46,439 nt of DNA from a candidate division WOR-3 bacterium. Lineage in GTDB: Bacteria; Hydrothermota; Hydrothermia; B15-G9; WFZT01. Location: contig JALUEE010000044.1 of the NCBI GenBank assembly GCA_027053075.1, positions 1 through 46,439 on the forward strand, written 5' to 3'. The number at the start of each line of letters is the position of its first letter. The stretch's first letter is position 1. The notes under the pieces were generated by a model. The model searched no databases. It was not told the origin of the DNA and worked only from the letters and a program-made list of their open reading frames with translations. A program made the translations under genes and the position numbers. Of the stretch, positions 68-46,312 are shown piece by piece.

Positions 68-293
68 GAGTCTGTTCGAAAATGTAACACCTGTTTATCC
101 TTTTGTGCGGCGTGAGTGTATTGAGGAGAAGAGCGATGTTTAAAATTAAGTAATTCGAGATTTTCCAGTCTAAAACTCCCCCCTTCCTCCCGAGGGAAAG
201 AAGGAAAATTTACCGATTGCAATTATCGTTGAGATTACGAACTTCAATTGGAAAAGGTGGCATCTAAAATTTAGGATTTCCCGAACAGGTTTC
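68..293 (+). mobile_element. MITE-like non-coding unit with degenerate TIRs and a degenerate hairpin module
   Basis: Left end GAGTCTGTTCGAAAAT (68-83), right end ATTTCCCGAACAGGTTTC (276-293). 161-290 aligns by eye with 31724-31855 (AATTTACCGA; TTGGAAAAGGTGGCA.CTAAAATTTAG.ATTT). Confidence 0.6.
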
Positions 294-300
294 ACGCCCC

Positions 301-329
301 TTGACAATATTTATTCCCGTTGACATTGT
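301..329 (+). promoter_or_regulatory. Candidate sigma70 promoter of polX (leaderless)
   Basis: TTGACA 301-306, 17 nt, weak -10 CATTGT 324-329, ATG 6 nt later, no SD. Second TTGACA at 320-325. Confidence 0.4.
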
Positions 330-335
330 AAAAAT

Positions 336-2072
336 ATGAATAAGAACAAGATTCTTGCCGAAATGTTTGATAAAATTGCCGACGGCCTGGAGTTCCTTGG
401 TGAAAATCCATTCCGTGTGAGCGCTTACCGCAAGGCCGCTCGAGTTTTAGAGGATTATCCAGACGACGTTGAGGAAATTTACAAAACCAAAGGGGTGAAG
501 GGACTTGAGGCCATTCCGGGGATCGGTAAAGGTATGGTGGAAAAGATTGTCGAGTTTCTCGAAACCGGTAAAATGACCCGCTACGATGAGGTGATGTCGA
601 AGGTGCCGCAGGATTTGTTAAAACTCATGGATGTTCAGGGAATTGGCCCCAGGACTCTCAAACTTGCCTACGACAGACTTGGAGTCAGAACAGTAGAGGA
701 TTTTAAGAGGGTACTTGAAGATGGTAGCCTCGCAAAGCTTCCCGGAATGGGCCCTAAAAAGATTGAGAATATCAAAAAGGGACTCGAGCTCTATAAAAAG
801 ATGTCAGAGCGAATCCCTCTTGGCCTTGCCATTCCCCTTGTTGAAGAGATTGTAGAAAGGATGAAAGAGCTTAAAGAGGTGAAGAAGATTTCTCCTGCTG
901 GCTCATTCAGACGAATGAAAGAGACCGTCGGAGACCTGGATATTCTCACAACCGGAGAAAATGGACGAAAGATTATAGACTACTTCACAAAATTGCCCGG
1001 TGTAACACGGATTCTTGCACATGGTGACACGAAAGGTTCATGTATTTTTAACGATCGCTATCAGGTTGACCTGAGAGTGGTACCTGAGGGGTCCTACGGA
1101 GCAGCTTTGCAGTATTTCACCGGTTCCAAAGAGCACAATATCCATTTGAGGAGTATTGCGAAATCCCTGAACATGAAAATCTCGGAGTACGGGGTTTTCA
1201 AGGGTAATGAAAAAATAGCGGGGGTAACCGAAGAAGAGGTTTACGAAGCACTGGGCTTGATCTGGATTCCACCTGAACTGCGTGAAGATAGAGGAGAAAT
1301 CGAAGCCGCTCAGAAGGGCAAACTACCCGACCTTGTAACCTTAGAGGATATTAAGGGGGACCTGCATGTACACAGCAAGTACTCAGATGGAACAGCCACT
1401 CTTGAGGAGATTGCAGAGCGGGCAAAAGAGATGGGATACGAATACATAGCAGTTTGCGACCATTCGAGGAGCGCTAAATATGCGCATGGGCTTGATATAG
1501 ACAGACTCATGGAGAAAACAGAAAGGATAAGAAAGCTCAATAGAAAATTACAGGGAGTCAAGCTACTTGCAGGCACCGAGGTGGACATCCTTCAGGACGG
1601 CAGTCTCGATTATCCTGATGATGTCCTAAAAGAGCTCGACTTTGTTGTGGCCGCAGTGCATATCTGGTCAAAAACCGAGGATGTTACAAAGAGAATTATA
1701 AAAGCCATGGAGAACCCATACGTCCACGCCATTGCACATCCCACAGGGAGACTCATCTCTCAGAGAGAGGGCTATAACGTTGATATTGATGAGGTGATCA
1801 GGGTGGCAGCGGAAACTGGAACATTGCTCGAGATCAATGCCTATTACGACCGGCTTGATTTGAACGACGTAAATGTCATGAAGGCAAAGGAAAGGGGAGT
1901 AAAGCTCACAATCGGTACAGATACACACAATATCGGTCAGTTGTGGAGTATGAAGCTTGGTGTCGGTGTGGCCCGAAGGGGCTGGCTTGAAAAAGACGAT
2001 GTCGTAAACACCCTTTCCTACGATGAGCTAATGAAATTCCTTGCAGAAATTAGAAAAAATAAGGGTGGATAA
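336..2072 (+). CDS. polX: DNA polymerase X / PHP-domain 3'-5' exonuclease
   Basis: NPFRVSAY N-terminus, HhH GIG motifs, GSFRR..ETVGDLD catalytic motif, YFTGSKEHN, PHP GDLHVHS..SDG, AHPTGR, TDTH. Confidence 0.95.
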   Translation: MNKNKILAEMFDKIADGLEFLGENPFRVSAYRKAARVLEDYPDDVEEIYKTKGVKGLEAIPGIGKGMVEKIVEFLETGKMTRYDEVMSKVPQDLLKLMDVQGIGPRTLKLAYDRLGVRTVEDFKRVLEDGSLAKLPGMGPKKIENIKKGLELYKKMSERIPLGLAIPLVEEIVERMKELKEVKKISPAGSFRRMKETVGDLDILTTGENGRKIIDYFTKLPGVTRILAHGDTKGSCIFNDRYQVDLRVVPEGSYGAALQYFTGSKEHNIHLRSIAKSLNMKISEYGVFKGNEKIAGVTEEEVYEALGLIWIPPELREDRGEIEAAQKGKLPDLVTLEDIKGDLHVHSKYSDGTATLEEIAERAKEMGYEYIAVCDHSRSAKYAHGLDIDRLMEKTERIRKLNRKLQGVKLLAGTEVDILQDGSLDYPDDVLKELDFVVAAVHIWSKTEDVTKRIIKAMENPYVHAIAHPTGRLISQREGYNVDIDEVIRVAAETGTLLEINAYYDRLDLNDVNVMKAKERGVKLTIGTDTHNIGQLWSMKLGVGVARRGWLEKDDVVNTLSYDELMKFLAEIRKNKGG

Positions 2073-2127
2073 ATTTCACCTGAATTGCCAGGAATACCTA
2101 ACGAAATCGAGATGTATAGCAGGGATT

Positions 2128-13877: not shown

Positions 13878-15137
13878 TCAAGTGTAGCGAATGATTTCGT
13901 GCCTCTCTTTTCCAATGGAAACCATTGAGATGTTTACACCGAGGTAGTCCTGAATGAAGTCCAGGTAAATTCTTGCGTTTTCTGGAAAATCTTCCTTCCT
14001 CTTTGCACCCCTGACCGTTTCCCATCCCCTGAAACTCTGGTAAATCGGCCTGACACCCTCAAGATCATGGGGGAGGTCACGGGTTCTTGACCCATCGGGT
14101 AACTCGTATTCCGTGGCAACTTTGATCTCGTCGAGCCCGTCGAGGACATCGAGCTTGGTGATAACGAGGTCTGTAACCCCATTGAGCATGACAGAATATT
14201 TGAGAAGCACCAGGTCGAGCCATCCGCATCTACGGGGTCTCCCGGTTGTGGCGCCGTATTCTCCACCTTTTTGACGAAGATATTCACCAAGATTGTCGTC
14301 AAGTTCGGTAGGGAACGGCCCTTTGCCCACCCTTGTTGTGTAGGCCTTGGAAATCCCGATGATGGAGTCGATTTTCTTTGGTGATATCCCGAGGCCAATG
14401 GTAGCTCCACCTGAAATTGTATGCGAGGATGTAACGTACGGATATGTTCCAAAGGTGATGTCAAGAAACGTGCCCTGCGCTCCCTCAAGAAGAACACTTT
14501 TACCTTCGCTAATACTTTTGTTCAAAAACAGGGCCGTGTCATCAACAAAATCTTTAATTTTCTCTCTCCACGTGGAGAGGAGCGAGATAATTTCCTCTTT
14601 TGAATAGTGTTTTTCGCCACCAAAGATTTTAAGGATGTGGTTGTTGTAAGTAAGGGATTTCTCAATTGCCCCAACGAGTCTTTTTTCATCAAATAAATCA
14701 TAGACTCTGATGCCGATTCTCCAGTATTTATCGCGGTATGTGGGGCCTATGCCTCTTTTGGTGGTGCCTATGCCACCTTTTTTAGTCTCTTCCAGTGCAT
14801 CTTCGTCTTTGTGATAGGGCATGGTAATCTGGGCCCGGCCATCTATCAAAAGTCTTCCTTTGATAGGCCCGGTTTTTCTCTCCACCAGTTCGATTTCTTT
14901 TAAAAGCGTCTCAATGTCGAGTACCACACCGGCACCGATTATACCCACTTTTTGAGGTCTCAGGATGCCTGAGGGTATGAGGTGAAAGATAAATTCTTCG
15001 TCACCTACGATTACAGTATGTCCAGCGTTTGTGCCTCCCTGAAACCTGGCAATGACATCGTAGTTTTCAGCGAGGAAATCCACGATTTTCCCCTTGCCTT
15101 CATCACCCCATTGCAGACCAACAACAGCAGTAACCAT
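13878..15137 (-). CDS. purA: Adenylosuccinate synthetase
   Basis: QWGDEGKGK, NAGHT, IGTTKRGIGP, EGAQG, TTGRPRRCGW, TKLDVLD. Confidence 0.98.
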   Translation of the reverse strand: MVTAVVGLQWGDEGKGKIVDFLAENYDVIARFQGGTNAGHTVIVGDEEFIFHLIPSGILRPQKVGIIGAGVVLDIETLLKEIELVERKTGPIKGRLLIDGRAQITMPYHKDEDALEETKKGGIGTTKRGIGPTYRDKYWRIGIRVYDLFDEKRLVGAIEKSLTYNNHILKIFGGEKHYSKEEIISLLSTWREKIKDFVDDTALFLNKSISEGKSVLLEGAQGTFLDITFGTYPYVTSSHTISGGATIGLGISPKKIDSIIGISKAYTTRVGKGPFPTELDDNLGEYLRQKGGEYGATTGRPRRCGWLDLVLLKYSVMLNGVTDLVITKLDVLDGLDEIKVATEYELPDGSRTRDLPHDLEGVRPIYQSFRGWETVRGAKRKEDFPENARIYLDFIQDYLGVNISMVSIGKERHEIIRYT

Positions 15138-15172
15138 TTGCGTTCCTCCAGAGTAGAATTGGAAACAGCTTG

Positions 15173-15201
15173 ATTTTAATGTAGCACTCCTATTCTCTCA
15201 A
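15173..15201 (-). promoter_or_regulatory. sigma70 promoter of the purA operon
   Basis: TTGAGA (15201-15196), 17 nt, TAAAAT (15178-15173); GGAGG SD downstream. Confidence 0.6.
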
Positions 15202-15205
15202 CCAA

Positions 15206-15330
15206 GAGTGAGTTAGAAAAATTTCAAGACCTTTAATTTTTAATTAAAAATTTGCCCCCCACCTTATTCCTCCCCCCACGCACAAAGTGCGTGGGGGGAG
15301 GATAGGAGGGGGGAATTTTCGAACGAGATC
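15206..15330. mobile_element. MITE-like unit 1 of a tandem array; central long hairpin
   Basis: GAGTGAGTTAGAAAAAT ... AATTTTCGAACGAGATC; perfect 16-bp stem 15268-15302 with AAA loop; flanked by ACCAA on both sides. Confidence 0.65.
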
Positions 15331-15335
15331 ACCAA

Positions 15336-15692
15336 GAGTGAGTTCAAAATTATCCTTCTTCCTTTTATACACACTAAATGTGTGGTGAAATATGCTGACA
15401 ACTACGGGACGAAATCCCTTCCCCCGCACGAATTTGTTTGCGGGGGAGGAAAGGAGAGGGGCCACATCATTCTTTACTTGAAATCAATCTTCCCCTTTGG
15501 AGTAAAGGTCCCGATAAAGGTTTGCATCTTGATTTTTCAAATTTTCGAACGGAAAGCCCCCTCCTGTCGCCCTCCCCCGCCTGCTGCGCAGGCGGGGGAG
15601 GGCATCGGGTTGTTCATCTTATACAAGTAAGGCGCTAACACGAGCTATTTCGCAAACACAAATCCTGAAGATAGGAATTTTCGGACCCCCTC
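15336..15692. mobile_element. MITE-like unit 2 of a tandem array carrying an inverted hairpin doublet
   Basis: GAGTGAGTTCAAAAT ... AATTTTCGGACCCCCTC; hairpin modules 15411-15467 and 15549-15603; homologous to 31241-31444. Confidence 0.65.
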
Positions 15693-15695
15693 ACC

Positions 15696-15724
15696 TTGAA
15701 TAAAAACTTTGGGCTGAATATAAT
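15696..15724 (+). promoter_or_regulatory. sigma70 promoter of GT4-NYN-pepA (leaderless)
   Basis: TTGAAT, 17 nt, TATAAT; GTG start 6 nt downstream, no SD. Confidence 0.65.
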
Positions 15725-15730
15725 TTAGCC

Positions 15731-16882
15731 GTGCAGAAATCGTTGAAAATCCTTATGGTTTCAGATGTTTACTACCCCTTTCCCGGTGGCATCACCGAGC
15801 ATGTCCACCACCTGTCTTACTATCTCATGGGGAAGGGACACGATGTTGTTATACTCACAGGGAACCACAAAAATGGCAAAAAAATCGGGCTCAATAGTGT
15901 TAAAGTTATCCGTGTGGGCCGTGGTATTCTAATTCCCATAAATCGCTCCTTCTACTCCCTTCCGGTGAGTTTCCGTCTCCAGAGTCGTGTGAGAGAAGTG
16001 CTTATGAGTCAGGAATGGGACATCGTGCATGTGCATGGCACCTTTTCTCCATCACTCCCACTTTTTACTCTGCTGCAATCTCCGTACACAAATTTCATGA
16101 CCTTTCATCCCACACATGGCTATTCCATTGGATTTGAGATTTTCAAGCCGATACTTCAGAGAGCCTACGAAAATATTCACGGTAAGATTGCCGTTTCAAA
16201 GAGTGCAGAGCGCTCCATCAGCCGACATTTCCCCGGTGATTATCGGATAATTCCCAACGGAGTAGATATTCACAGGTTCGGCCCTCATGTCATGCCAGAA
16301 GACGGTTTAAGGGAAGGCAACGAGAAAATAATTCTCTTTGTGGGAAGAATAGAGCCGCGAAAAGGTTTATCCACGCTTCTTAAAGCATTTGAGAAACTCC
16401 TCAAGCAGGGAGAAGACGTGAGGCTCCTCATTGTAGGTGATACGCCGTTGAGGAAGGTTTTTGAACTCAAGGCACAGAAATTTGGCAGCAGGGTAAAATT
16501 CCTTGGAAAGGTTACGGCACAGGAGATTCCGCGGATTTACAGGGCAGCAGATGTATTTGTGGCACCGGCAACCGGTAAGGAGAGCTTTGGAATAGTTTTG
16601 ATCGAGGCCCTCGCGTCCGGCAAACCTGTTGTGGCATCGGATATTGATGGATATCGAGAGATCATTTCACATGGGGTGGATGGCTTTTTAGTTGAACCCG
16701 GTAATGCCGATTCTCTCGCTCATCATATTGAGAAAATTTTGAAGAATCCAGAGCTGGCAGCAAAGATGGGGGAAATGGGGAGAAGGAAGGTGATGGAACG
16801 GTATTCATGGGAAATTGTATCTTCCATGGTGGAATATTATTACTTCGAGGTTCTTGAAAATGCCAAAAAAGTTTTACGTTGA
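15731..16882 (+). CDS. GT4 family glycosyltransferase (PimA-like)
   Basis: P.PGGI..HV, IIPNGVD, FVGRIEPRKG, ESFGIVLIEA.ASG.PVVASDI.G. Confidence 0.92.
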   Translation: MQKSLKILMVSDVYYPFPGGITEHVHHLSYYLMGKGHDVVILTGNHKNGKKIGLNSVKVIRVGRGILIPINRSFYSLPVSFRLQSRVREVLMSQEWDIVHVHGTFSPSLPLFTLLQSPYTNFMTFHPTHGYSIGFEIFKPILQRAYENIHGKIAVSKSAERSISRHFPGDYRIIPNGVDIHRFGPHVMPEDGLREGNEKIILFVGRIEPRKGLSTLLKAFEKLLKQGEDVRLLIVGDTPLRKVFELKAQKFGSRVKFLGKVTAQEIPRIYRAADVFVAPATGKESFGIVLIEALASGKPVVASDIDGYREIISHGVDGFLVEPGNADSLAHHIEKILKNPELAAKMGEMGRRKVMERYSWEIVSSMVEYYYFEVLENAKKVLR

Positions 16883-17321
16883 CGGCTACAATGTCATCTT
16901 TTCCACATTCTTGAGGGACCTGGAGCTTGAAAAGGCCCGTGAGTATTTGATTCAATTTTCAAAGGTTTATGTGCCTGACACGGTTATCATCGTTTTTGAC
17001 GGGAAAGAGGGGATTCCATCGGCACTTTCAGCGACAAATTATGTGAGGTTTACAAGGGGTGAAAGTGCTGATGATTACATTAAAAGGGCTGTGGAAAAAG
17101 AGAAGGACCGCTCTAAGATTTTTGTCGTAACCAACGACAAAAGTATCATAGGTTACGTCGGGTATCTGGGGGCCCGGGTTATGCCACCAGATGAATTTAT
17201 GGGTGGTCCAAAGCATAAAAGAAAGCCTACAAATGACAAGGAATCTATCCCGGAGGTCGTAAAGAAAAGAATTAACGAGGAGCTCCTTGAGCTCTGGCTT
17301 AAAAAAGGAGGTAAAAAATGA
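16860..17321 (+). CDS. NYN/YacP-like PIN-domain RNase
   Basis: VDGYNV, IVFDG, GESADDYI, VVTND. Start taken at ATG 16860. Confidence 0.85.
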   Translation: MPKKFYVDGYNVIFSTFLRDLELEKAREYLIQFSKVYVPDTVIIVFDGKEGIPSALSATNYVRFTRGESADDYIKRAVEKEKDRSKIFVVTNDKSIIGYVGYLGARVMPPDEFMGGPKHKRKPTNDKESIPEVVKKRINEELLELWLKKGGKK

Positions 17322-18832: not shown

Positions 18833-18859
18833 TGTAGATTTGACCGAATATAAATTGAT

Positions 18860-18897
18860 GGGGGCTCCACGCACGAAGTGCGTGGAGCCCCCTTTTT
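18860..18897 (+). terminator. Perfect 15-bp hairpin (GAA loop) with T-tract between convergent pepA and azlD
   Basis: gggggctccacgcac-GAA-gtgcgtggagccccc-ttttt. Confidence 0.8.
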
Positions 18898-18938
18898 AAA
18901 CACCGAGGGTAATATGTTTTCAAATATTGGTTCCCCCT

Positions 18939-20623: not shown

Positions 20624-20690
20624 TGTTGCTTACACTGCCGCGCTGTGACTACACAACTCTTTTGGGCCTAAATCAGCTTTCTGGTTGTCC

Positions 20691-24691: not shown

Positions 24692-24696
24692 GGCGA

Positions 24697-26219: not shown

Positions 26220-26229
26220 GAGGAATGGC

Positions 26230-27396: not shown

Positions 27397-27400
27397 GAAT

Positions 27401-27931: not shown

Positions 27932-27939
27932 TTAAAATC

Positions 27940-27968
27940 TTGACAGGTGCTGATCAGAAGGTTATATT
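27940..27968 (+). promoter_or_regulatory. sigma70 promoter of the DUF5320/NifX operon
   Basis: TTGACA, 17 nt, TATATT; GGAGGTG SD before ATG 28000. Confidence 0.65.
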
Positions 27969-27999
27969 CAATTAAAATCATAGTCGGAGGTGAAAGAAA

Positions 28000-28314
28000 A
28001 TGTTTGGATTCGGAAGAGGATTTGGAAGATGGTTTGGAGGATGGGGTAGAGGTTGGTGGGGTGGTAGAGGTTTTGGATGGGGTGCAAGGTTGGGTTACTG
28101 CCCATGGACCGGTATGCCTCGCGGCTGGAGATGGTATGGAGCAGCTCCGTACAACGTTCCTGCCTATGGATACCCTTACGGCGCTCCCACTTACGGTACC
28201 ACGTACCCAGCCACTGAAGACGTAGATGTTCTTAAAAGCCAGGCTGCTATGTTACAGGAGGAAATCAGGAGAATAGAGAAGAGAATTAAGGAGCTGGAGG
28301 GACAGGGAAGATGA
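28000..28314 (+). CDS. DUF5320-like Gly/Arg/Trp-rich small protein with C-terminal coiled coil
   Basis: GRG repeats, GYCPW, C-terminal LKSQAAMLQEEIRRIEKRIKELE; sits before NifB/NifX genes. Confidence 0.75.
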   Translation: MFGFGRGFGRWFGGWGRGWWGGRGFGWGARLGYCPWTGMPRGWRWYGAAPYNVPAYGYPYGAPTYGTTYPATEDVDVLKSQAAMLQEEIRRIEKRIKELEGQGR

Positions 28315-28796
28315 AAATAGCAGTAACATCTACGGGACCAGGCCTTGATTTTCCTGTTGATTACAGGTTTGGCAGGTGTGCGTATTTCATTATAGTGGAT
28401 ACTGATACAATGGAATACCAGGCTTTACCAAACCCTGCAGTTAACGCCCCGGGTGGAGCCGGCACTCTTGCAGCTCAGTTTGTAGCTTCCCAGGGTGTCA
28501 CACACGTTTTAACAGGTGAAGTGGGGCCCAATGCTTATCCAGCACTCATGGCAGCAGGTGTTACTCCAGTCACAGGTGTTACCGGCACGGTAAAAGAGGC
28601 AGTTGAGGCCTTTAAAGCGGGCAGAATCCCGGCAGCAGCTCAGACAGCACCCCCTCAATGGGGTTACCCTCAGCCAGCCCCCATGGATAGAGAGACAGAA
28701 CTAAAGGCACTAAAAAGCCAGCTTGAAGTTTTAAAATCACAGTTAAACGGTCTTCTTGAGAGGATCGAAAAACTTGAAAAGGAGAAGAATCAATGA
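28311..28796 (+). CDS. NifB/NifX-family FeMo-cofactor-binding-like protein with coiled-coil tail
   Basis: MKIAV, RFGRC.YF, NP....GGAG..AAQ, G.VGPNA. Confidence 0.88.
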   Translation: MKIAVTSTGPGLDFPVDYRFGRCAYFIIVDTDTMEYQALPNPAVNAPGGAGTLAAQFVASQGVTHVLTGEVGPNAYPALMAAGVTPVTGVTGTVKEAVEAFKAGRIPAAAQTAPPQWGYPQPAPMDRETELKALKSQLEVLKSQLNGLLERIEKLEKEKNQ

Positions 28797-29284
28797 AAGT
28801 TGCTATCACATCAACAGGTCCGACGCTTGATTCACCGGTGGACCCGAGATTTGGAAGGGCAGCGTATTTCATTATAGTTGATACCGATACCATGGAGTAT
28901 CAGGCATTCCCAAATCCCGCAGTTAATGCCACAGGTGGAGCAGGAACAATGGCAGCCCAGTTTGTGGCATCCCAGGGTGCACAGGCTGTGGTTTCTGGAG
29001 AGGTCGGTCCGAATGCCCTTGCAGCTCTTCAGGCAGCAGGACTCCAGATTATCACCGGAATGACAGGAACAGTGAGAGAAGTCATAGAGAGAATAAGAGC
29101 CGGTAATTTCTCGTTCTCAACTCCACCTGCCACTGGATTTCAGGGTGGACCTGGCTACGGTCCCGGAGGAGGAAGAGGTTGGGGCCGAGGCGGTGAATGG
29201 GGTAAAGGTAGAGGAAGAGGCCCTGGTGGTGGCTGGGGCAAAGGTAGAGGTGGACGCGGAGGCGGCTGGGGACCTGGATTCTAA
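28793..29284 (+). CDS. NifB/NifX-family protein with RGG-rich tail
   Basis: Close paralogue of the previous gene (RFGRAAYF); tail GRGWGRGG... Confidence 0.88.
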   Translation: MKVAITSTGPTLDSPVDPRFGRAAYFIIVDTDTMEYQAFPNPAVNATGGAGTMAAQFVASQGAQAVVSGEVGPNALAALQAAGLQIITGMTGTVREVIERIRAGNFSFSTPPATGFQGGPGYGPGGGRGWGRGGEWGKGRGRGPGGGWGKGRGGRGGGWGPGF

Positions 29285-29296
29285 GGATTTTTAGTT

Positions 29297-30154
29297 ATGA
29301 AAATTGCTGTTGCCTCAGGAAAGGGAGGGACCGGGAAGACTTTTGTCTCAACTTCCCTTGCCCTCAGTATTGACGATGAATTGACATTCCTCGACCTCGA
29401 TGTTGAGGAACCCAACGCTCATATTTTCATTAAGCCAGAATTTGAAGAGGAAAGCGACGTCGGTATTCCTGTCCCGAGAGTGGACTACGATAAATGTGAC
29501 TTTTGTGGTGTTTGCCAGGAAGTTTGCGCATACAATGCCATTTTTGCCTTTCCAAATACAAAGAAAGTTGTTGTCTTTGATGAACTCTGCAAGGGCTGCG
29601 GTGCCTGTGTAGTGCTCTGCCCCCAGAAAGCACTTTACGAAGTCCCACGTCCTGTCGGCTCAATGAGAAAAGGAAAGAACGGAAGAATACGATTTTTTGA
29701 CGGTAAACTTAACATCGGAGAGATTAACACCACCTACATGATTACATACATCAAAAAACAGATTGAGGGCGAGGAAAACATCATTATTGACTCACCACCA
29801 GGAACATCCTGTCCCATGATTCAGGCAATAAAGGACTCGGATTTTGTCGTCCTTGTCACTGAGCCCACACCCTTTGGTTTATTTGACCTAAATCTTGCCT
29901 ATCAGGTGGTCAAAAAGATGGAAATTCCAGCGGGTATTGTTATCAACAGATACGGCATAGGAGATGACAGGGTTGAGAAATTTGCCGAAGAAAATCGCGT
30001 CCCGATTCTAATGAAAATCCCATTCTCACGTGAGATTGCTAAGTATTATTCAGAAGGGGTTTCCATTGTGGAGGTTAATGACGAGTGGAAGGAGAAATTT
30101 CGCAAGATGTATCAGGATATTCAAAATCTAACAGGAGCTAAAAACGATGCTTGA
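29297..30154 (+). CDS. MinD-superfamily P-loop ATPase with inserted 2x[4Fe-4S] ferredoxin
   Basis: SGKGGTGKT, DVEEPN, CDFCGVC...C, CKGCGAC...CP, DSPPGTSCP, EPTPFG. Confidence 0.92.
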   Translation: MKIAVASGKGGTGKTFVSTSLALSIDDELTFLDLDVEEPNAHIFIKPEFEEESDVGIPVPRVDYDKCDFCGVCQEVCAYNAIFAFPNTKKVVVFDELCKGCGACVVLCPQKALYEVPRPVGSMRKGKNGRIRFFDGKLNIGEINTTYMITYIKKQIEGEENIIIDSPPGTSCPMIQAIKDSDFVVLVTEPTPFGLFDLNLAYQVVKKMEIPAGIVINRYGIGDDRVEKFAEENRVPILMKIPFSREIAKYYSEGVSIVEVNDEWKEKFRKMYQDIQNLTGAKNDA

Positions 30155-31007
30155 GGTTGCAGTTGTTAGCGGAAAAGGTGGCACCGGTAAGACCTCGGTT
30201 ACTGCCGCATTTGCCACAATAGTGAAGTCAAAAGTTCTTGCAGACTGTGATGTGGACGCACCGGACCTGCATTTGATACTTCAGCCTGAAATCCTCCAGT
30301 CCAGTGATTTTTATGGAATGAAAAGGGCTTACATAAGGCTTGATGACTGCACGTGGTGTGGAATTTGCCGGGAATACTGTAGATTTGATGCCATAAGTGA
30401 AGATTATGTGGTTGACCCTATAGCCTGTGATGGCTGTGAGCTGTGCTACCATCTCTGCCCTGAAAAGGCCATTGACCTGAAGCCCACACTTGCCGGGCAC
30501 TGGTACGTGGCAAAATCACGATTTGGCACCCTTGTCTATGGAATGCTCGAGATTGGTGAGGAAAACTCTGGCAAACTCGTTACAGTAATCCGCAAGCAGG
30601 GTCTATTTCTCGCACAGAAGGAAAAGGCCGATTATCTTTTAGTTGATGGACCACCTGGTACGGGATGCCCAGTAAATTCTACTCTTTCTGGCTTGAAATT
30701 TGCCTTTGTAGTGGCTGAGCCCACCCAGTCGGGGGCCCATGACCTCGGGAGAATTCTTGACCTCATGGAGCATTTCAATGTCTATCCTCTCGTGATCGTC
30801 AACAAATATGACCTAAATGAAGAGGTTTCGCGTGACATTGAAAAGTACGTGGAGCAAAGAGGAGGCACGGTGCTTGGCAGGATTCCCTTTGATCCTGCTG
30901 TAACAAAGTCCATGACAGAAGGACTGAGTGTCGTGGAATATGGCGACTCCCCTGCATCCAGAGCAATCCAGGAAGTGTGGAAAAAGTTTGAAGCAGGATT
31001 GAACTGA
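30147..31007 (+). CDS. MinD-superfamily P-loop ATPase with inserted ferredoxin (second paralogue)
   Basis: SGKGGTGKT, DCDVDAPD, CTWCGIC...C, CDGCELC...CP, ENSGKLV, DGPPGTGCP. Confidence 0.92.
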   Translation: MLEVAVVSGKGGTGKTSVTAAFATIVKSKVLADCDVDAPDLHLILQPEILQSSDFYGMKRAYIRLDDCTWCGICREYCRFDAISEDYVVDPIACDGCELCYHLCPEKAIDLKPTLAGHWYVAKSRFGTLVYGMLEIGEENSGKLVTVIRKQGLFLAQKEKADYLLVDGPPGTGCPVNSTLSGLKFAFVVAEPTQSGAHDLGRILDLMEHFNVYPLVIVNKYDLNEEVSRDIEKYVEQRGGTVLGRIPFDPAVTKSMTEGLSVVEYGDSPASRAIQEVWKKFEAGLN

Positions 31008-31212
31008 TTAGCGGCAACTTTGGAAAAGTTTAAAAGATTCTGCCCCTTAGAGATAACCTGTACGTCACACTACTATTTTTCAGCAGCGATGTAAAATAGT
31101 TTAACTTTTTACATCGGAAAGTTTCGTCCGAATGAAATTTTTAGTGTAAGTCTTGAAAATCCCCGATTTTCCCAACTGTCATTAAGATGACAATTGTGAA
31201 AGTTTGGAAAGC

Positions 31213-31500
31213 GAGCATGTTCGAAAATGTTCAAACACAGAAAACTCCTCTCCCCGCATAAATACTTACGGGGAGAGGATAGAGGAGAGAGGTCACATAT
31301 ATTAAACTTGAATAAATTTAAGAATAGAACTTACCCATCAACTTAGCGGCAATTTGTCTTTATCTTGAATTTCTAATTTTCAAGCGGAATGCCCCCTCCC
31401 AACACCCTCCCCCACTTGCAAAGCAAGTGGGGGAGGGGAACTTGAACCCAGATGTTTTACTAATGTGGATTATAGAAAATGATTTTTCAAACAAGCCTTC
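31213..31500. mobile_element. MITE-like unit 1 of the 31-kb array
   Basis: GAGCATGTTCGAAAAT ... ATTTTTCAAACAAGCCTTC; hairpin modules 31241-31298 and 31384-31444. Confidence 0.7.
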
Positions 31501-31510
31501 TTTGAAAAGT

Positions 31511-31859
31511 GAGCTCGTTCGCAAATGTTTCCCTAATTATTTTTTAGCTACAAGTGAATAAAGTGAGCAGAAAAGTGAGTTTAAACAAGTTTCACCAAGC
31601 ATGATAAGTTGCGAAACTCCCTCCCTTCATCTGGAAGGGAGGGTTGGGGTGGAATGGATAAATTAGTTAGGCAAAAGTATTTATGTTCGGGAATATTCTT
31701 TGACATTCAAAAGAGTGTTAATCTTTTCCCATTCTCCCCTGACCCCTCCTTCCGGCGGAAGGAGGGGAATTTACCGACTGGTCTGTGATCATTTTTAAAT
31801 TGCGTGAATTCATTGGAAAAGGTGGCAACTAAAATTTAGAATTTTTCAAACAAGCCTTC
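31511..31859. mobile_element. MITE-like unit 2 of the 31-kb array
   Basis: GAGCTCGTTCGCAAAT ... ATTTTTCAAACAAGCCTTC; modules 31611-31660 and 31724-31780; TTTGAAAAGT on both flanks. Confidence 0.7.
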
Positions 31860-31868
31860 TTTGAAAAG

Positions 31869-31897
31869 TTGACATATAAGGGGGACTTAAATATAAT
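31869..31897 (+). promoter_or_regulatory. Consensus sigma70 promoter of the mutase gene
   Basis: TTGACA, 17 nt, TATAAT (perfect consensus). Confidence 0.8.
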
Positions 31898-31922
31898 TCA
31901 TTCAAAAAAGGGGGTCTTTGAT

Positions 31923-33596
31923 ATGTATGATGAGCTGAAGAAAAGTCTTGATGAATGGTACAAAAGAAGAAAGGAAAGGTCAAAGGATATTAAGCCCAAA
32001 TATCAAACCATCTCCGGCCTGGAGATTAAAGACCTTTATACCCCCCTGGATATAAAAGATTTTGACTACAAAGAAAAGCTCGGTTTCCCGGGCGAGTACC
32101 CCTATACCCGAGGTCCCTATTACAACATGTACAGGGGTCGCGTCTGGACAATGCGTCAGTTCGCTGGATTCGGCAGAGCAAGTGACACAAACAAGCGCTT
32201 TAAGTATCTCCTTGCTCACGGTGAGACCGGTCTTTCCACGGCATTTGATTTTCCCACACTCTATGGACGTGATTCAGATGACCCTCTTTCCGAAGGTGAG
32301 GTTGGCCGCGTGGGTGTGGCAGTGGATACACTTGCTGATTTTGAAATTCTGTTTGATGGAATTCCCCTTGATAAGGTTTCAACCTCATTCACGATAAATC
32401 CCACTGCTGCCATCATACTTGCCATGTATATCGTAGTTGGCGAAAAGCAGGGGGTCCCATCGGAGAAACTCCGCGGCACTATTCAAAACGATATGTTTAA
32501 GGAGTACCACGCTCAGAACGAGTGGATATTCCCACCGGAGCCTTCGCTTAGAATCATCACTGACATCTTTGCCTTTGCAAAAGACCACGTTCCCAAATTT
32601 AATACAATCTCCATCTCAGGATATCACATCCGTGAGGCAGGCTCGACGGCTATTCAGGAGCTCGCTTTCACCCTTGCAGACGGATTTGCTTATGTTGAGG
32701 CGGGTATTAGGGCCGGACTCAATGTGGATGATTTCGCACCGAGGCTCTCATTCTTCTTTAATGCTCACATGGATTTCTTTGAGGAAATTGCCAAATTCCG
32801 TGCGGCAAGGAGAATCTGGGCGAGAGAGATGAAGAACCGATATAAGGCAAAGAAGCCTGAGAGCTGGAGACTGAGATTCCATACCCAGACTGCAGGCTGC
32901 TCCCTTACACTTCAACAGCCTGAAAACAACATAGTGAGGACCGCTTATGAGGCCCTTTCCGCAGTTTTGGGAGGCACACAGTCCCTCCATACAAATTCCT
33001 TTGACGAAGCGGTCCAGCTCCCTTCGGAAAAGGCCGTGAAAATTGCCCTCAGAACCCAGCAGATAATCGCTGAGGAAACAGGTGTCATCAACACCATAGA
33101 CCCCCTTGCCGGCTCATATTTTGTTGAAGCACTTACAGACAAGATGGAGGAAGAGGCATATAAATACTTTGACAAGATTCTGGAATTTGGTGATGGCTCA
33201 TTCTTAGACGGTGTTCTTAAGGGGATAGAGATAGGATTCTTCAGAAAAGAGATTGCGGATGCGTCTTACGCTTATCAGAGAAGAGTGGAAGAGGGCGAGT
33301 ATTCAGTTGTGGGAATCAACAAATATGCTGATCCTGATGAGAAAATTGAGATTCCGAGATTTTACATTGACCCCAATGTGGAGCCCGAGCAGATAGCATT
33401 CTTAAAGAAAATTAAATCAGAAAGGGACAACACTGCAGTCCAGAACGCGTTGAAGAGGATGGAGGAAGCGGCCAGGACCAATAAAAATCTCATGCCATAC
33501 ATTATAGATGCTGTCCGTGTTTATGCCACAGAGGGTGAGATTGTAAACACATTGAAATCTGTCTTCGGTGCCTACAAAGAGCTGGTAATGATTTAG
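31923..33596 (+). CDS. B12-dependent acyl-CoA mutase large (substrate-binding) subunit, isobutyryl-CoA mutase-like
   Basis: [52 protein letters not shown]; no DXHXXG B12 domain. ATG 31923 after GGGGG SD. Confidence 0.92.
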
Positions 33597-33884
33597 ATGG
33601 CTCATGTCATATTAAAGGAGAGCTGGCAGAGGGTTTGGAAACTCATCAAAGATAAGGCCTATATTTCCGAAAATGAGGCTATCCTGATTCAAGAGAAGAA
33701 TGAGGTGAACTTTCCTGTTTTATTCCGACAACATCCTGAAGGCGTGATTGTAAGGATGGACAACTTTCCCATGTTTGTGGATGAGGATACGGTTGAGGAT
33801 ATTTTGATTAAAACTGTAGATCAGCTTGGCATCAAAGCCAGATTCTACAATTTTCGGAAGAAAAAGTTAAAGAGTAGCTTTTAA
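33597..33884 (+). CDS. Hypothetical protein, 95 aa
   Basis: Starts immediately after the mutase stop; no recognised motif. Confidence 0.55.
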   Translation: MAHVILKESWQRVWKLIKDKAYISENEAILIQEKNEVNFPVLFRQHPEGVIVRMDNFPMFVDEDTVEDILIKTVDQLGIKARFYNFRKKKLKSSF

Positions 33885-34162
33885 AAGAGTACGATATGGT
33901 TTACTGATGTTTTAAGTATCATTTTAGGTGTAGAAATATTAATTGTTGCTGGACGTTATAGCCTCTGGATTCCCATATTGAGACATATAATTCTCATTTT
34001 GGGACTTTCGGGGACCTCAAAAATTAGTCGATGTAATCTTAAAAATGCAGTTTACCCCCATTAGGATTTCTCTTCTCTATATTTATTCCGAGTGGAAGGT
34101 TAATTGCCAGGATTCTGGGTAAATCGTTAAAAGAGGGAATTTTCGAACAGCATCATCTGCTT

Positions 34163-34191
34163 TTGAATTTAGAATAATAAAAGTGTAAAAT
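34163..34191 (+). promoter_or_regulatory. sigma70 promoter of the LVIVD gene
   Basis: TTGAAT, 17 nt, TAAAAT; AAGGAGGT SD before ATG 34218. Confidence 0.65.
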
Positions 34192-34217
34192 AATGTTTGT
34201 TAAAGGAGGTAAGAAAA

Positions 34218-36377
34218 ATGATGAAGTTGATGATAGTGATGTTGCTGGCTTTGGGCCAGGGTGGTAATTTTGGGAAGCATGGAGTAATGAGCAGGTTAGG
34301 TCTGCCAGAAATAGGAGGGCCAAGGGTTGAATCCGGATTTGATTCTCTTAATGTGAGATTTGTTGGTGCATGGCCCTTTGGCCCTTCTTATGCTGTTGCA
34401 ACAAACGGTGATACAGTTTTTCTTGGATCAGGAGGTGGAATATATATCCTTGACGTAACCGATCCCGCTAACCCTCAAAAAATAAGTGAGATAAAAACAC
34501 GCGGAATAGTAAGTGATATCGCTTATTTCAATGGCAAATTATATATTGCAGACGGTAAAGGAGGACTTGAGATATGGGATGTAAGTAATCTCACGTCTCC
34601 TCAAAAATTAAGTTCGTATAATACTCCCAGTTATACGGGAGGAGTGTATGTGGCAGGAAACTATGCTTATGTGACTGATAGAGATTCGGGAATGAGAGTG
34701 ATAGATGTAAGTAATCCTTCTAACCCTCATGAAGTGGGATATTTCGATACTCCTGGTTTGGCAATTGGTGTTTATGTATCAGGGAATTATGCTTATGTAG
34801 CAGATTGGGATTCAGGCCTGAGAGTCATTGATGTAAGTAATCCTTCTAATCCTTTTGAAGTAGGTTACGATACCCTTGGCTCTGCTTTGGATGTTTATGT
34901 GTTGGGGAATTATGCTTATGTAGCAGATTGGGATTCAGGCCTGAGAGTCATTGATGTAAGTAATCCTTCTAATCCTTTTGAAGTAGGTTACGATACCCTT
35001 GGTTTGGCAATTGGTGTTTATGTATCAGGGAATTATGCTTATGTAGCAGATTGGAATTCAGGTCTGAGAATAATAAATGTGAGTAATCCTAACAATCCTT
35101 TTGAAGTTGGTTACTACAACACACTGGCTTCTGCCTATGGAGTGGCTGTGGTTGAAAATTACGCTTATGTAGCTGACAATTGGGGAGGCTTAAGGATAAT
35201 AAATGTAAGTGATCCCTCTAATCCTTATGAATTGGGTTGCTATGAGGTTCCTGGAGACATAGAGGATGTATATGTATCAGGGAATTATGCTTATGTAGCA
35301 GATTGGAATTCAGGTCTGAGAATAATAGATGTGAGTAATCCTAACAATCCTTTTGAAGTTGGTTATTACGATACTCCTGGTCTTGCAAAAGGAGTGTATG
35401 TGGCTGGAAATTATGCTTATGTAGCTGATGATTGGGATGGTCTTTGGGTAATAGATGTAAGTAATCCATCCACCCCCCATGGAGTGGGTTATTATGATAC
35501 CCCGGGTTGGGCAAGGGATGTATATGTTTCGGGGAATTATGCTTATGTGGCTGATTGGGGAGATGGCCTTAGAGTAATAGATGTGAGTAATCCATCCAAT
35601 CCCCATGAAGTAGGTTATTATGATACACCAGGTTATGCTAGAGATGTATATGTGGTAGGGAATTACGCCTATGTGGCTGATGGTGATTCTGGATTGAGAG
35701 TGATTGATGTTAGCATTCCCACTAATCCCCGAGAAGTGGGTTTCGTTGATATTCCTGGTTATGCATATAGTGTCTATGCCGCAGAAAATTATGCCTATGT
35801 GGCAGCAGGTATTAATGGAGTGCGAATAATAAATGCGTATAATCCATCCAATCCCTATGAAGTAGGTTACTATAATGCAGGCTTTGCGAGAGAAGTATAT
35901 GTTGTAGAGAATTATGCGTACGTGGTGGGGGGGACTTACTTAAGAGTAACAGATGTAAGCAATCCATCCAATGCACATGAAGTAGGTTACCATGACACAC
36001 CCGGCTCTGCCAACGGGGTTTACGTGATTGAGAATTATGCCTATGTGGCAAATGGCAATGCTGGTCTGCAAATTTATCAGTTTTATGGTGTTGGAGTGGA
36101 AGAGGATGGATCAGAGCAGCTTGTTAATCCTTTGAGAGTTAAAGTGAATTCAGTGAAAAGGTTGGATATCTCATTTGAGGTTAAGCAAGGGACAAGGGCT
36201 GAGCTTAAACTTTATGACGTTGCAGGGAGAGAAGTCTGGAGAGGGAAGTTTAATTCAGGAAGACACCATGTATCCATGCCATTACCCACCGGGGTGTATA
36301 TCCTGAGGTCAAATGTTATAAACAGGACAAAGGTTTCAATTTATACGAAAAGATTGATAATTTTGGATAACAACTAA
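34218..36377 (+). CDS. Secreted LVIVD-repeat (beta-propeller) protein with T9SS-type C-terminal domain
   Basis: Signal peptide; about 13 repeats of 41-42 aa (V.GNYAYVAD...GLRVIDVSNPSNP.EVG); C-terminal LYDVAGR...LPTGVYIL...KRLII. Confidence 0.9.
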   Translation: MMKLMIVMLLALGQGGNFGKHGVMSRLGLPEIGGPRVESGFDSLNVRFVGAWPFGPSYAVATNGDTVFLGSGGGIYILDVTDPANPQKISEIKTRGIVSDIAYFNGKLYIADGKGGLEIWDVSNLTSPQKLSSYNTPSYTGGVYVAGNYAYVTDRDSGMRVIDVSNPSNPHEVGYFDTPGLAIGVYVSGNYAYVADWDSGLRVIDVSNPSNPFEVGYDTLGSALDVYVLGNYAYVADWDSGLRVIDVSNPSNPFEVGYDTLGLAIGVYVSGNYAYVADWNSGLRIINVSNPNNPFEVGYYNTLASAYGVAVVENYAYVADNWGGLRIINVSDPSNPYELGCYEVPGDIEDVYVSGNYAYVADWNSGLRIIDVSNPNNPFEVGYYDTPGLAKGVYVAGNYAYVADDWDGLWVIDVSNPSTPHGVGYYDTPGWARDVYVSGNYAYVADWGDGLRVIDVSNPSNPHEVGYYDTPGYARDVYVVGNYAYVADGDSGLRVIDVSIPTNPREVGFVDIPGYAYSVYAAENYAYVAAGINGVRIINAYNPSNPYEVGYYNAGFAREVYVVENYAYVVGGTYLRVTDVSNPSNAHEVGYHDTPGSANGVYVIENYAYVANGNAGLQIYQFYGVGVEEDGSEQLVNPLRVKVNSVKRLDISFEVKQGTRAELKLYDVAGREVWRGKFNSGRHHVSMPLPTGVYILRSNVINRTKVSIYTKRLIILDNN

Positions 36378-44358: not shown

Positions 44359-45992
44359 TTTATAAACCTCAAGATGTCCTTTCTCATCAGCATGCCTATG
44401 ACGTGATTGTTTTCACACACCGGAAGGGCATCCACCTCCTGGGCCTTAAAAATTTTATAGGCATCCATGAGAGACATTTCTGCACTTAGACACGGAGAAT
44501 TTAGCCTTACAAGGTCTTCTGCAACTATGAGGTGCTCGATTGCCCTGTCCAGTACAAACTGCTCAAGGTCGCGAAGGTTTATAACCCCCACAAGATTTTC
44601 ATTGTCATCAATCACAGGCAGTGTATGACAGCGGGATTTCTCGAAAATAGTGATTATTTCTTTAATCTTCATCTCTGGCTTGATTATGTTAAAGTTGCGA
44701 AGCATCAAATCGTGCACTCTCAGCTCGCCCGCCTTCCGGGACTTAACTGACACACCAATCTGCTTCAAAAACTCTGAGAAAATTTCGTCAAAGTGGAAGT
44801 CCCAGAGGGGTTTTGATTCCATTTCTACAATGCGCGATAGTTTTATTTCACCGGCCATGAGAAGTCCTTTCTTTAAGAGAATAATACCACCTATCTCGAA
44901 AACGATGGTTGATGAGAGAATGAGGTTCATGGCTTTGATACCTGCACCTCCCTTTGAGCCCAAAATAAGGGCAAATCCTATGGCAAGGCCCGCCTGTGTG
45001 AGGATTCCCATGCCCAGTGCCCGTGCTTCCCATTTGTCCGCGCCTCCACGAAGGGCCCCTTTGTAGGCACCGATATATTGGCCGGCACCTCTTGCGATAA
45101 CGTAGAGAATGACCCCCGGCAGCATGGGGATCAATAGATTGAGGTGCATACTTGCCCCTGATACGAAGAAAAAGATGATGTAAATCAGGTTATCGAAGAG
45201 TTCGAGCTCTTTCAGTATTTTCTTGTGTTTTATTGACGCATTGGACGCGATAAAGCCGATAAAAAATGCCCCCACATAGGGATTCAGGTGGAAAATTTCG
45301 AGCACCCCTATGGTGGAGAGAACAGTTCCAAGGGCAAGGATGGTCATGTTTAGCTCATTTTTAGTCTTCACCTCTATGTATGTGAGGAAAAAGCCCACCA
45401 CAATCCCGATAATTGAAGAAACAAGATACTTAAGCGTTATGATGTAAAAGTGGTAAGGTATCCCACCTGCGAGCTTTTCTTTAAAGACGATTGGCAGGAA
45501 GGCACTGAAGAGGTAGAGAACAAGCAGGTCATTTATGACGATTAGCAAAAGAAGTGCGGACGTTACAGGACCTTCTGCATCGAGCTCGTCAATCACAGCA
45601 ATGGTTGAAGCCGGTGCGATGGTTACGCCGATTAAACCGATGAAAAGGGCCACCTTTATGTCGCGGAAAAGCGGGAAAACAAAGATGGAGACGAGTACAA
45701 ATGTGAGAAAGAACTGGAAGAGTAGCACATTGAGGACAATTTTGATTGACCCCTTAAGATGCTCAATCTTCAGCTTGGTGCCAACAAGGAAGAGAATGTA
45801 AGCGAGGGCAAATGAGTTGAAAGGAGTCATAGAAACGAGGAAGTGTTCATTTACGATCTTCAAAACATAGGGGCCAAAGAGAAGTCCACCGATGAGATAA
45901 CCGAGCACTTTAGGCAGTTTAAAAGCCTGCGATATACGCGCCAGGGGTATGGAGAAAAGCAGTATAAGGCCCAGTTTAAAAATAAAGTCCAT
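44355..45992 (-). CDS. CPA2-type cation:proton antiporter with C-terminal CBS pair
   Basis: About 12 TM segments, LP.V.GY..GLLFGP, APAST..V, ND, FF..SGA, QAGLAIG; CBS motifs LPVID and LPV. Confidence 0.9.
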   Translation of the reverse strand: MDFIFKLGLILLFSIPLARISQAFKLPKVLGYLIGGLLFGPYVLKIVNEHFLVSMTPFNSFALAYILFLVGTKLKIEHLKGSIKIVLNVLLFQFFLTFVLVSIFVFPLFRDIKVALFIGLIGVTIAPASTIAVIDELDAEGPVTSALLLLIVINDLLVLYLFSAFLPIVFKEKLAGGIPYHFYIITLKYLVSSIIGIVVGFFLTYIEVKTKNELNMTILALGTVLSTIGVLEIFHLNPYVGAFFIGFIASNASIKHKKILKELELFDNLIYIIFFFVSGASMHLNLLIPMLPGVILYVIARGAGQYIGAYKGALRGGADKWEARALGMGILTQAGLAIGFALILGSKGGAGIKAMNLILSSTIVFEIGGIILLKKGLLMAGEIKLSRIVEMESKPLWDFHFDEIFSEFLKQIGVSVKSRKAGELRVHDLMLRNFNIIKPEMKIKEIITIFEKSRCHTLPVIDDNENLVGVINLRDLEQFVLDRAIEHLIVAEDLVRLNSPCLSAEMSLMDAYKIFKAQEVDALPVCENNHVIGMLMRKDILRFIK

Positions 45993-45999
45993 GATGCTT

Positions 46000-46028
46000 A
46001 TTATAATGTGACTGCCAAATCCGGTAAA
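46000..46028 (-). promoter_or_regulatory. Candidate promoter of antiporter-C25 (leaderless)
   Basis: TTTACC, 17 nt, TATAAT (46005-46000); ATG 7 nt downstream, no SD. Confidence 0.5.
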
Positions 46029-46126
46029 ATTGACGTTTGATGTTGGGAAAAGTTTTGAAGGGGATTTTCACATGTATCACTCTGTACGTTTGAAGGGAAC
46101 ACGTCCAAACCCGCCAGAAAGCTTTT

Positions 46127-46312
46127 ATCTTGTTCAAAAATCCTAAATTTAAGTTGCACCATTTTAAAGGTTCTCATAATTCCATTGATTATCTCAGATC
46201 AGTCGGTAATTTTCCCTCCTTCCCCGAGGGAGGAGGGGGTCAGGGGAGAATGGGGTAAGATTAGCAATCTCTGGCTTTAGAATGTCTAATGGAGCGATAT
46301 TCCTGAACATGT
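46127..46312 (-). mobile_element. MITE-like unit; minus-strand homologue of 31683-31857
   Basis: Reverse complement reads ATGTTCAGGAATAT...TAATCTT..CCCATTCTCCCCTGACCCC..hairpin..TTACCGACTG.TCTG.GAT...TGCAACT.AAATTTAGGATTTTTGAACAAG. Confidence 0.7.

Follow-up and report, generated by a model that had tools for sequence, protein, structure and literature searches.

REP and REPIN sequences are hairpin doublets dispersed through intergenic DNA, for which the RAYT (TnpA-REP) proteins, encoded by single-copy genes flanked by the repeats, are the candidate enzymes. Three other described systems share with the DNA reported here the traits that we list for them now. In the sections of PMC4666352 available to us, the BoxC/PIT/TMECO repeats combine a GC hairpin with a mirror purine tail, are intergenic, often stand as inverted pairs and undergo stem-preserving deletions. 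MITEAba12 of Acinetobacter, in the passages of PMC6382973 at hand, is a short miniature inverted-repeat transposable element (MITE) with 16-bp ends and a 9-bp duplication that is moved in trans by ISAba12, an insertion sequence (IS) of ~1 kb, to which its identity is confined to the ends. The TnGBS/ISLre2 (p-MULT3) and ISKra4-group (p-MULT4) elements, according to the accessible parts of PMC3942029, insert at a fixed distance upstream of the −35 box of sigma-A promoters, in either orientation when their ends are near-perfect, and leave 8–9-bp duplications. Here we analyze a stretch of 46,439 nucleotides (the window; contig JALUEE010000044.1 of the candidate division WOR-3 assembly GCA_027053075.1), contained in sequencing runs labelled hydrothermal vent metagenome, whose intergenic DNA carries short hairpin-bearing MITEs. 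Our reading is that an IS5-like transposase probably moves these MITEs and inserts them flush with the upstream border of sigma-70 promoters.

The units share 16-bp ends of the form GAG(C/T)NTGTTCGAAAA(A/T). A weight matrix trained on the genome of the window itself (G000; 2.44 Mb, 95% complete, in which the window is contig C44) gave 385 matches of at least 13 bits versus 55 in an order-4 Markov control sequence, and 189 versus 0 at 18 bits or more. Inward-facing pairs at most 1.5 kb apart numbered 85 versus 0, and the paired ends proposed in a preliminary description of the window thus hold genome-wide. Most paired units are short (93–377 bp), non-coding and bounded by terminal inverted repeats. 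Among 84 of them with lengths of 60–700 bp, 28 are flanked by a 9-bp duplication and seven by a 10-bp duplication (at most one mismatch), compared with 0.4 and 0.1 under shuffled pairing. Strong ends lie predominantly in intergenic DNA (204/272). To compare orthologous sites we used the congener G004 (genes ~94% identical), sampled as 69 regions, 397 kb in total out of about 2.4 Mb, picked because they matched an end or a repeat; its loci were selected for good ends and are biased toward young units. Of its 58 units, 31 could be placed in G000, where 14 sites are cleanly empty, two empty-like, seven filled and eight of other size; 15 of 78 G000 units could be placed in G004 (two empty, eight filled, five of other size). 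This makes 16 sites filled in one sister species and cleanly empty in the other, including window 15210–15330, and supplies the empty orthologous gaps that the preliminary description had proposed as a check. Exact end matches number 57 in G004 and 41 in G000. An apparent absence of the ends from four congeners, obtained with the exact pattern, was overturned by a variant-tolerant search, which finds them in all five (G001–G005, 82–96% complete). The intergenic units are, with near certainty, genuine MITEs. An Rfam scan of the window gave 0 matches.

Often, the ends stand at a fixed position relative to promoter-like sequences. Scanning outward from ends of at least 16 bits to offset 49, with a TTGACA-like hexamer taken as the −35 box, we found the hexamer at offset 8 or 9 for 59/259 ends in G000 (37 at 8, 22 at 9) and 39/152 in G004. 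Every other offset holds 0–5 hexamers, the background being 0.3% per position, and a reverse-complement control was flat. A −10 box follows 16–18 nt on behind 45/67 (G000) and 25/42 (G004) of the hexamers at offsets 7–11, and behind 3.8% of all hexamers and 13.9% (226/1,627) of intergenic ones; 40 of these 226 promoter-like intergenic sites have a MITE end against them. We then aligned 49 units with an intact 9-bp duplication, each oriented to its better −35 side. Positions 8–13 read T47 T44 G38 A41 C27 A28, and the −10 signal, on which no selection was made, appears at positions 31–32 as T32 A31, whereas the maxima over 2,000 draws of random intergenic sites treated by the same rule were 31 (position 8), 27 and 26. 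Because empty alleles also have the hexamer, which is external to the element, it is not part of a hybrid promoter. Some sites have been hit independently in two genomes. In congeners the offset is 9–11 (G002: 15/30 ends), and related elements show offset 8–9 at 14/40 distinct ends, in a slightly wider pattern, touching 8/11 loci with two or more ends. ISAae1 of Aquifex likewise has a 9-bp duplication, with TTTACA at offset 8 followed 16 nt on by TATACT. Overall, the fixed adjacency of MITE ends to promoter-like sequences is strongly shown. As a separate observation, a tandem MITE of G002 (C140:10311 onward) adjoins TTGACA-17-TAATAT in front of an apparent tRNA gene.

An autonomous element with the same ends, which the preliminary description had proposed looking for, is present in G004: C168:4933–5993 is an intact 1,061-bp element with ends identical to those of the MITEs, a 10-bp duplication and a 308-aa open reading frame (ORF), and its site is empty in G000. 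More copies may exist in G004, to judge by four further fragments (95–98% identical) located at the ends of contigs; G000 has two decayed copies. The 308-aa protein matches DDE_Tnp_1 (PF01609) above the cut-off. Its best NCBIfam model is IS5 (NF033579), at 104 bits and below the cut-off of 140; the homologues matching this model are 52/52, and the closest relative with an IS name is the transposase of the IS5-like ISAae1 (38–40% identical). Residues D112, D188, Y239, R242, E246 and K253 include a Y-R-E-K motif, which we take to be a trait of the IS5 family. The structure model is confident (predicted local distance difference test, pLDDT, 95). Foldseek places ISCth4, presumably an IS256-family transposase, first by E-value (4.7e-7, template-modelling (TM) score 0.46), and Tn5 has the higher TM score (0.54–0.57). 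Related elements with roughly 27–53% identity carry the same ends; a single-protein scan of the genome contigs gave no match, and an alignment-based scan gave four loci. We conclude that the MITEs share their ends with an ISAae1-related, IS5-like element of G004, very probably the driver, and that its transposase likely moves them in trans. Mobilization in trans had been proposed before, with ends reminiscent of IS1182 or IS5; the IS5 half of that comparison agrees with the best model, and the IS1182 half does not (19 bits versus a cut-off of 270 for NF033551).

Several other candidates for the driver were discarded. In G000, MITE ends bound neither the IS256-type gene at C46 nor any of the four long DDE_Tnp_1 genes, and the long end pairs of this genome (1.5–2.1 kb) contain host genes or other IS and no cognate transposase. 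A search for PF06782 (ISLre2 family) gave 0 matches in G000 and likewise 0 in the control genomes, and its negative result therefore carries no information. For RAYT/Y1 transposases, whose genes had been suggested as candidates, PF01797 gave 0 matches in the 95% complete G000, with the control positive in 6/14 genomes. As a side observation from another organism, a related IS (Ga0065718_1004948) is followed, 11 bp from its right end, by another element whose ends are similar, and so shows the tandem habit of the MITEs described below.

The interiors of the MITEs carry hairpin motifs built from a pyrimidine arm, a complementary purine arm and a mirror purine third strand, which by this architecture are BoxC/intrastrand-triplex motifs (triplex motifs below); the modules H1, H2 and H3 of the preliminary description are present as written. 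Of the 84 paired units in G000, 63 fall into four clusters (34, 20, 7 and 2 members) that align over most of their length, and 21 are singletons. Family A, the commonest (the 34-member cluster, about 123 bp), has a single hairpin of a type missing from that list. Family B (240–377 bp) has two inverted hairpin-plus-tail motifs and was aligned from 19/20 members, one chimera being excluded. Families A and B both align end to end, non-hairpin linkers included. Family C consists of H1 and an inverted H2. The 7-member cluster comprises units interrupted by a different MITE of 216 bp, and the singletons include half-B units and one-off mosaics (C38:18149, C59:3337, C47:55467, C78:19309). No shared stretch with the IS reaches 30 bp in any MITE interior, the two decayed IS copies excepted. 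Three fixed-interior families dominate and mosaics are a minority. The earlier idea of interchangeable modules survives for the mosaics and for the variable motif variants in congeners, and routine capture and shuffling of modules does not describe interiors that are mostly fixed per family.

Units also stand in tandem, with one duplication present three times (for example at window 31201, 31499 and 31858), and orthologous sites can hold different families in G000 and G004: A versus B at C23:2870, B+C versus A at C82, and the IS versus family A at C47:83351. A vestigial inner end (at least 5 bits) is found in 11/34 long family B spacers versus 2.9% of shuffles, and stem-to-stem deletions have shortened units such as window 68–292.

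Three side observations concern the MITEs and their surroundings in these genomes. The 216-bp MITE has 24 copies in G000 (e.g., C16:4204–4419, outside the window), with CTGA...TCAG ends and a 10–12-bp duplication that is exact in 20/24 copies; we take it to be IS4-like. About 19/24 copies lie inside triplex motifs by eye (12/23 by a crude automated test), and longer versions break contigs, which suggests a collapsed autonomous partner. At G000:C14:7052–8919 a family A MITE keeps its 10-bp duplication, and a transposase gene that looks like IS110 by eye is inserted beside the hairpin. At the G004 ortholog of window 31115 (C280) there is an insertion of ~1.4 kb with an ORF that by eye resembles an AAA-ATPase and with repeated flanks; it is absent from G000.

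Within the window itself, these genome-wide patterns correspond to the following features:
68–292, + strand: family B MITE that has lost sequence between its two hairpins (ends 24.2 and 10.1 bits; subterminal sequence like family B; common to G004)
59–67 and 293–301: decayed 9-bp duplication of unit 68–292 (7/9 identical)
301–306, + strand: TTGACA 8 nt outside the MITE end, 5′ of a PolX/PHP gene, with a weak −10 match
15173–15201, − strand: promoter-like TTGAGA-17-TAAAAT, 5′ of the adenylosuccinate synthetase gene
15201–15209 (left copy, + strand) and 15331–15339 (right copy): target duplication ACCAAGAGT, single copy in G004
15210–15330, − strand: family A MITE of 121 bp, its single hairpin tailed on either side (34-member cluster; empty site in G004)
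15336–15692, + strand: family C MITE, H1 and inverted H2 (ends 9.4 and 11.3 bits)
24795–24940, no strand assigned: two triplex motifs without detectable ends (free layer), conserved in G004
27401–27931, + strand: decayed composite (H1-like, H2, H1) with no end above 5 bits, only its right part common to G004
31213–31498, + strand: family C MITE, H1 and inverted H2, first of a tandem (ends 23.4 and 17.0 bits)
31499–31510 (+ strand), with a decayed copy at 31201–31212 and an exact copy at 31858–31869: 12-bp duplication TCTTTGAAAAGT shared by the tandem
31511–31857, + strand: family B MITE with two inverted triplex motifs (both ends score; aligns with family B)
34139–34154, − strand: lone MITE end (16.4 bits)
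46126–46312, − strand: half family B MITE with one end (46126), one triplex motif and the inner spacer
46313–46439, + strand: initial part of an IS3-like element that runs to the contig end, outside the MITE family (8 copies in G000, some with transposase ORFs)

At the unit 15210–15330, the first T of the minus-strand TTGAGA is the final base of the duplication at 15201–15209. A contig of an independent sequencing run (X2) jumps from 15200 to 15331, omitting the same 130 bases as G004, and the insertion of this unit into the end of its neighbour 15336–15692 is recent; the G004 copy of that neighbour carries a stem-to-stem deletion between H1 and H2. Four ends of the window are at offset 8 from a −35-like hexamer (292, 15210, 27931 and 34154). 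Beyond 27931, TTGACA-17-TATATT begins at 27940, and beyond 34154, TTGAAT-17-TAAAAT begins at 34163. The second unit of the tandem, 31511–31857, adjoins TTGACA-17-TATAAT at 31869, the sole 12/12 promoter match in 15000–34400, with the −35 box at offset 11 from end 31857 and a 12-bp duplication. The two best promoter matches in that interval both adjoin MITE units.

The preliminary description, made from the letters of the window alone, listed at least seven units with shared ends. Five of them have two scoring ends, whereas 27401–27931 has none above 5 bits and 46127–46312 has one, its supposed second end being the inner spacer of family B beside the IS3-like element. The unit drawn at 15206–15330 is real, with its true start at 15210. 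The target duplications, the docking against −35 boxes and the end at 34154 had been overlooked. The claim that such units fill most intergenic gaps is too strong: of the 11 window gaps of at least 100 bp, five hold named units, one a lone end, one hairpins only and four neither, and genome-wide 228/542 gaps hold a hairpin motif and/or an end, by a count that rests on a crude ORF mask.

Some further observations concern the window apart from its MITEs. The label of the element at 46313–46439 is our assumption from its TG end and two-ORF layout; at least three of its eight G000 copies (C26, C32, C71, C14 and others) lie within or beside triplex motifs. Short perfect GC palindromes stand at 1–20, 18860–18892 and 24697–24720, some with a GCACGAAGTGC core resembling the hairpin loop of family A, and the one at 18860–18892 scores as a terminator. 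Positions 34197–36377 encode a 726-aa protein with at least 11 LVIVD repeats, which is 88% identical to its G004 counterpart versus 94% for the neighbours.

The triplex motifs form a layer of their own, as the two-tier layout of the preliminary description had it, with a MITE shell and separate BoxC-type repeats. A detector built for this analysis, which missed the ycjD locus of E. coli, returned 523 matches in G000 versus 5 in the control. These merge to 454 loci, of which 88 are bounded by two ends, 116 by a single end and 250 by none, and 162 of the 250 free motifs have no MITE-like flank. Free motifs are mostly common to G000 and G004 (35/42), whereas bounded motifs mostly differ (34/58). 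Exact hairpins of the H1/H2 type number 81 in G000 and 64 in G004, and none of 270 other genomes has more than 10; the four more distant congeners have interiors with differing numbers of other hairpin or triplex-motif variants, among which just four short matches to G000 were seen. G000 has a single DUF559 gene (C26:16551–16886), flanked by an H1-type and an H2 motif with no recognisable end, in the same arrangement as family C; the preliminary description had suggested looking for a gene of this kind flanked by the hairpins. A motif is found within 250 bp at 29/30 of the best-scoring short DUF559 loci returned for the phylum and near 0/20 of the long, weakly matching DUF559-like loci. In E. 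coli, the consensus of PMC4666352 matches once, about 170 bp downstream of ycjD. A role of the DUF559 nuclease as the enzyme of the cargo would be consistent with this distribution.

We propose the following mechanism for promoter-edge insertion. The last base of the 9-bp target duplication would be the first T of the −35 box, and promoter-bound RNA polymerase, or the DNA structure of the promoter, would guide the transposase to a target at about −43 to −35, beside sigma region 4. The core promoter would be left untouched by the insertion, so copies could be tolerated and accumulate. One promoter may be hit repeatedly, giving tandems that share one duplication, and such repeated hits are the likely source of both tandems and mosaics: a tandem moved via its outer ends, together with deletion between similar hairpin stems, could yield the longer families and the mosaics, which would give the families a composite origin. 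The interiors may derive from an older BoxC/triplex repeat layer whose candidate enzyme is the DUF559 (YcjD-like) nuclease, with the repeats now mostly hitch-hiking on MITEs. Guidance by the polymerase is our inference. Contact with RNA polymerase has been proposed for TnGBS, and none is shown in the sections of PMC3942029 that we could access; a predicted complex of our transposase with sigma-70 region 4 scored 0.02, which speaks neither for nor against such contact. A bolder version can be stated, which we regard as tentative and rather doubtful: that an IS5-like clade (ISAae1 and its kin) independently evolved RNA-polymerase-guided insertion by docking on sigma region 4 in the manner of a class II activator, that its empty shells repeatedly adopted the BoxC/triplex repeat of the host, that roughly a fifth of recognisable promoters serve as assembly sites for modular non-coding elements, and that the DUF559 nuclease was the original enzyme of the cargo.

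Other explanations of the promoter adjacency have to be weighed against polymerase-guided insertion. The transposase might read T|TGA(C/A) at the target edge directly, without RNA polymerase, with promoters being hit as non-coding carriers of this word. The four bases at the cut are indeed the strongest positions of the alignment, and the target of ISAae1, with TTTACA on either side, is close to a palindrome. A TC often directly precedes the duplication, as a TC-N10-GA palindrome would have it (TC is also the end of older neighbouring MITEs). Yet a −10 box at 16–18 nt accompanies 67% of the hit hexamers versus 14% of intergenic ones, which would be expected to be equally harmless; the signal is one-sided, being on both sides in 1/84 units, and the offset shifts with the duplication length between lineages (8–9 versus 9–11). 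On balance, we consider such direct readout unlikely. Insertion could also be unbiased, with selection retaining harmless copies just upstream of promoters: surviving insertions alone are visible, the strong ends are largely intergenic, and ISs often lie <100 bp from genes (Tempel et al., PMC9208149, in the part accessible to us). Such selection predicts a broad shoulder, whereas the offsets form a two-base spike (at most 5 outside offsets 8 and 9) and the same sites were hit independently in two genomes, which makes this account very improbable. That the driver is a Mutator-type (p-MULT3/4) element, and the pattern simply the known promoter targeting of ISLre2/ISKra4, would fit 9-bp duplications and promoter adjacency as given in the portions of PMC3942029 consulted, and ISCth4 leads the Foldseek matches by E-value. 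The p-MULT3/4 definition in that source requires a C/D(2)H signature and a 99–138-aa insert between D2 and E; here the D188–E246 spacing is 58 aa and there is no C/DxxH signature, and thus the transposase is not of the Mutator type. The Y-R-E-K motif, the Pfam and NCBIfam assignments, the higher TM score of Tn5, an offset of 8–9 nt rather than 15–17, and the lack of any end of at least 9 bits near the sole IS256-type gene of G000 point the same way. A Mutator-type identity of the element found is refuted by catalytic spacing and family scores, and this explanation as a whole is exceedingly improbable.

For the interiors, the alternative to composite growth from tandems is active capture and exchange of hairpin modules by a single MITE shell, with a DUF559 nuclease moving them into and between shells. 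The one-off mosaics speak for this, as do G002 units that hold the same modules in variable numbers, congeners that fill the same ends with unrelated motif variants, and the DUF559 gene arranged like family C between H1 and H2. However, families A and B align with their linkers, where orthologous sites differ in their interiors, a whole element has been swapped or a stem-to-stem deletion has occurred, with no clean gain of a single module seen, and DUF559 was not found in G004. We judge active module swapping to be quite unlikely.

Several observations weigh against promoter-edge insertion and the history proposed for its cargo. The docking data are surviving insertions, shaped by selection, and the docked promoters are putative ones, identified as consensus matches. 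Docking is not universal: 22/43 G000 units with a duplication (at most two mismatches) have no strict −35 match on either side, and 26/40 ends of related elements lack a hexamer at offsets 8–9, including both ends of three loci with at least two ends. Some of the 49 aligned units are orthologous pairs counted in both genomes. In the window, the promoter-like TTGAAT-17-TATAAT at 15696 is at offset 3 from unit 15336–15692, outside the 8–9 rule, and end 46126 has no fitting −35 offset. The transposase copies of G000 are all broken. We found no tandem whose inner junction recurs at a second site, which would be direct evidence of the composite origin. Of the free hairpins, 7/42 differ between G000 and G004, but no difference is a clean insertion, so independent movement of the hairpin layer finds no support; G001–G005 yielded no DUF559, even though G004 has its 64 H1/H2-type hairpins; and no DUF559 remnants were found inside MITEs or their spacers. 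Lastly, MITEs with the same ends in G103 and G010, from two other families, have no triplex motifs, and thus the cargo is not required.

If promoter-edge insertion is correct, the 308-aa IS5-like enzyme, together with ISAae1 of a cultured organism, would represent a second, unrelated case of promoter targeting, for which the geometry is defined to the base pair, the structure model is confident and natural targets number in the dozens. Should the targeting work in another host, it could provide a small tool for promoter mapping or for inserting DNA just upstream with genes unbroken. Hitch-hiking on MITEs may be one route by which orphan BoxC/triplex repeats reach high copy number. As the elements adjoin 40/226 recognisable intergenic promoters, upstream regulatory DNA appears to be undergoing rewriting genome-wide.

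Compared with known systems, MITEs of IS5-type elements are ordinary, and promoter targeting is known from another family. Within the open-access literature searched, fixed-distance promoter targeting is described only for Mutator-type elements, and we found no paper there on such targeting by the IS5 family, on MITE-borne BoxC, on a ycjD–BoxC link, or on ISAae1 and its targeting or MITEs (that literature excludes ISfinder and most subscription journals). The TnGBS/ISLre2 and ISKra4-group elements have Mutator-superfamily transposases and a distance of 15–17 bp (13–17 in a tree legend) in the parts of PMC3942029 seen, whereas here the duplication touches the −35 box; the driver works like them in targeting but is not a member. 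MITEAba12, as far as the passages of PMC6382973 go, is one 113-bp family with AT-rich targets without a sequence trend, internal outward promoters and no triplex hairpins. Unlike in REP/REPIN–RAYT systems, no Y1 transposase was found in G000, the mobile unit has transposon ends and duplications, and the gene flanked by repeats is DUF559, a Vsr-like nuclease. In the available sections of PMC4666352, no link to a mobile element was found for BoxC in E. coli and ycjD is not mentioned, whereas in the present DNA MITEs carry the motifs as cargo, DUF559 genes are flanked by them and a second MITE uses them as targets. There is also a close likeness to ISAae1 of the Aquifex aeolicus plasmid ece1 (NC_001880.1, WP_010880899.1), an element of about 1.0 kb with near-identical ends, a 38–40% identical transposase, and the same duplication length and offset; what distinguishes the system described here from it is the presence of multiple MITE families with triplex cargo.

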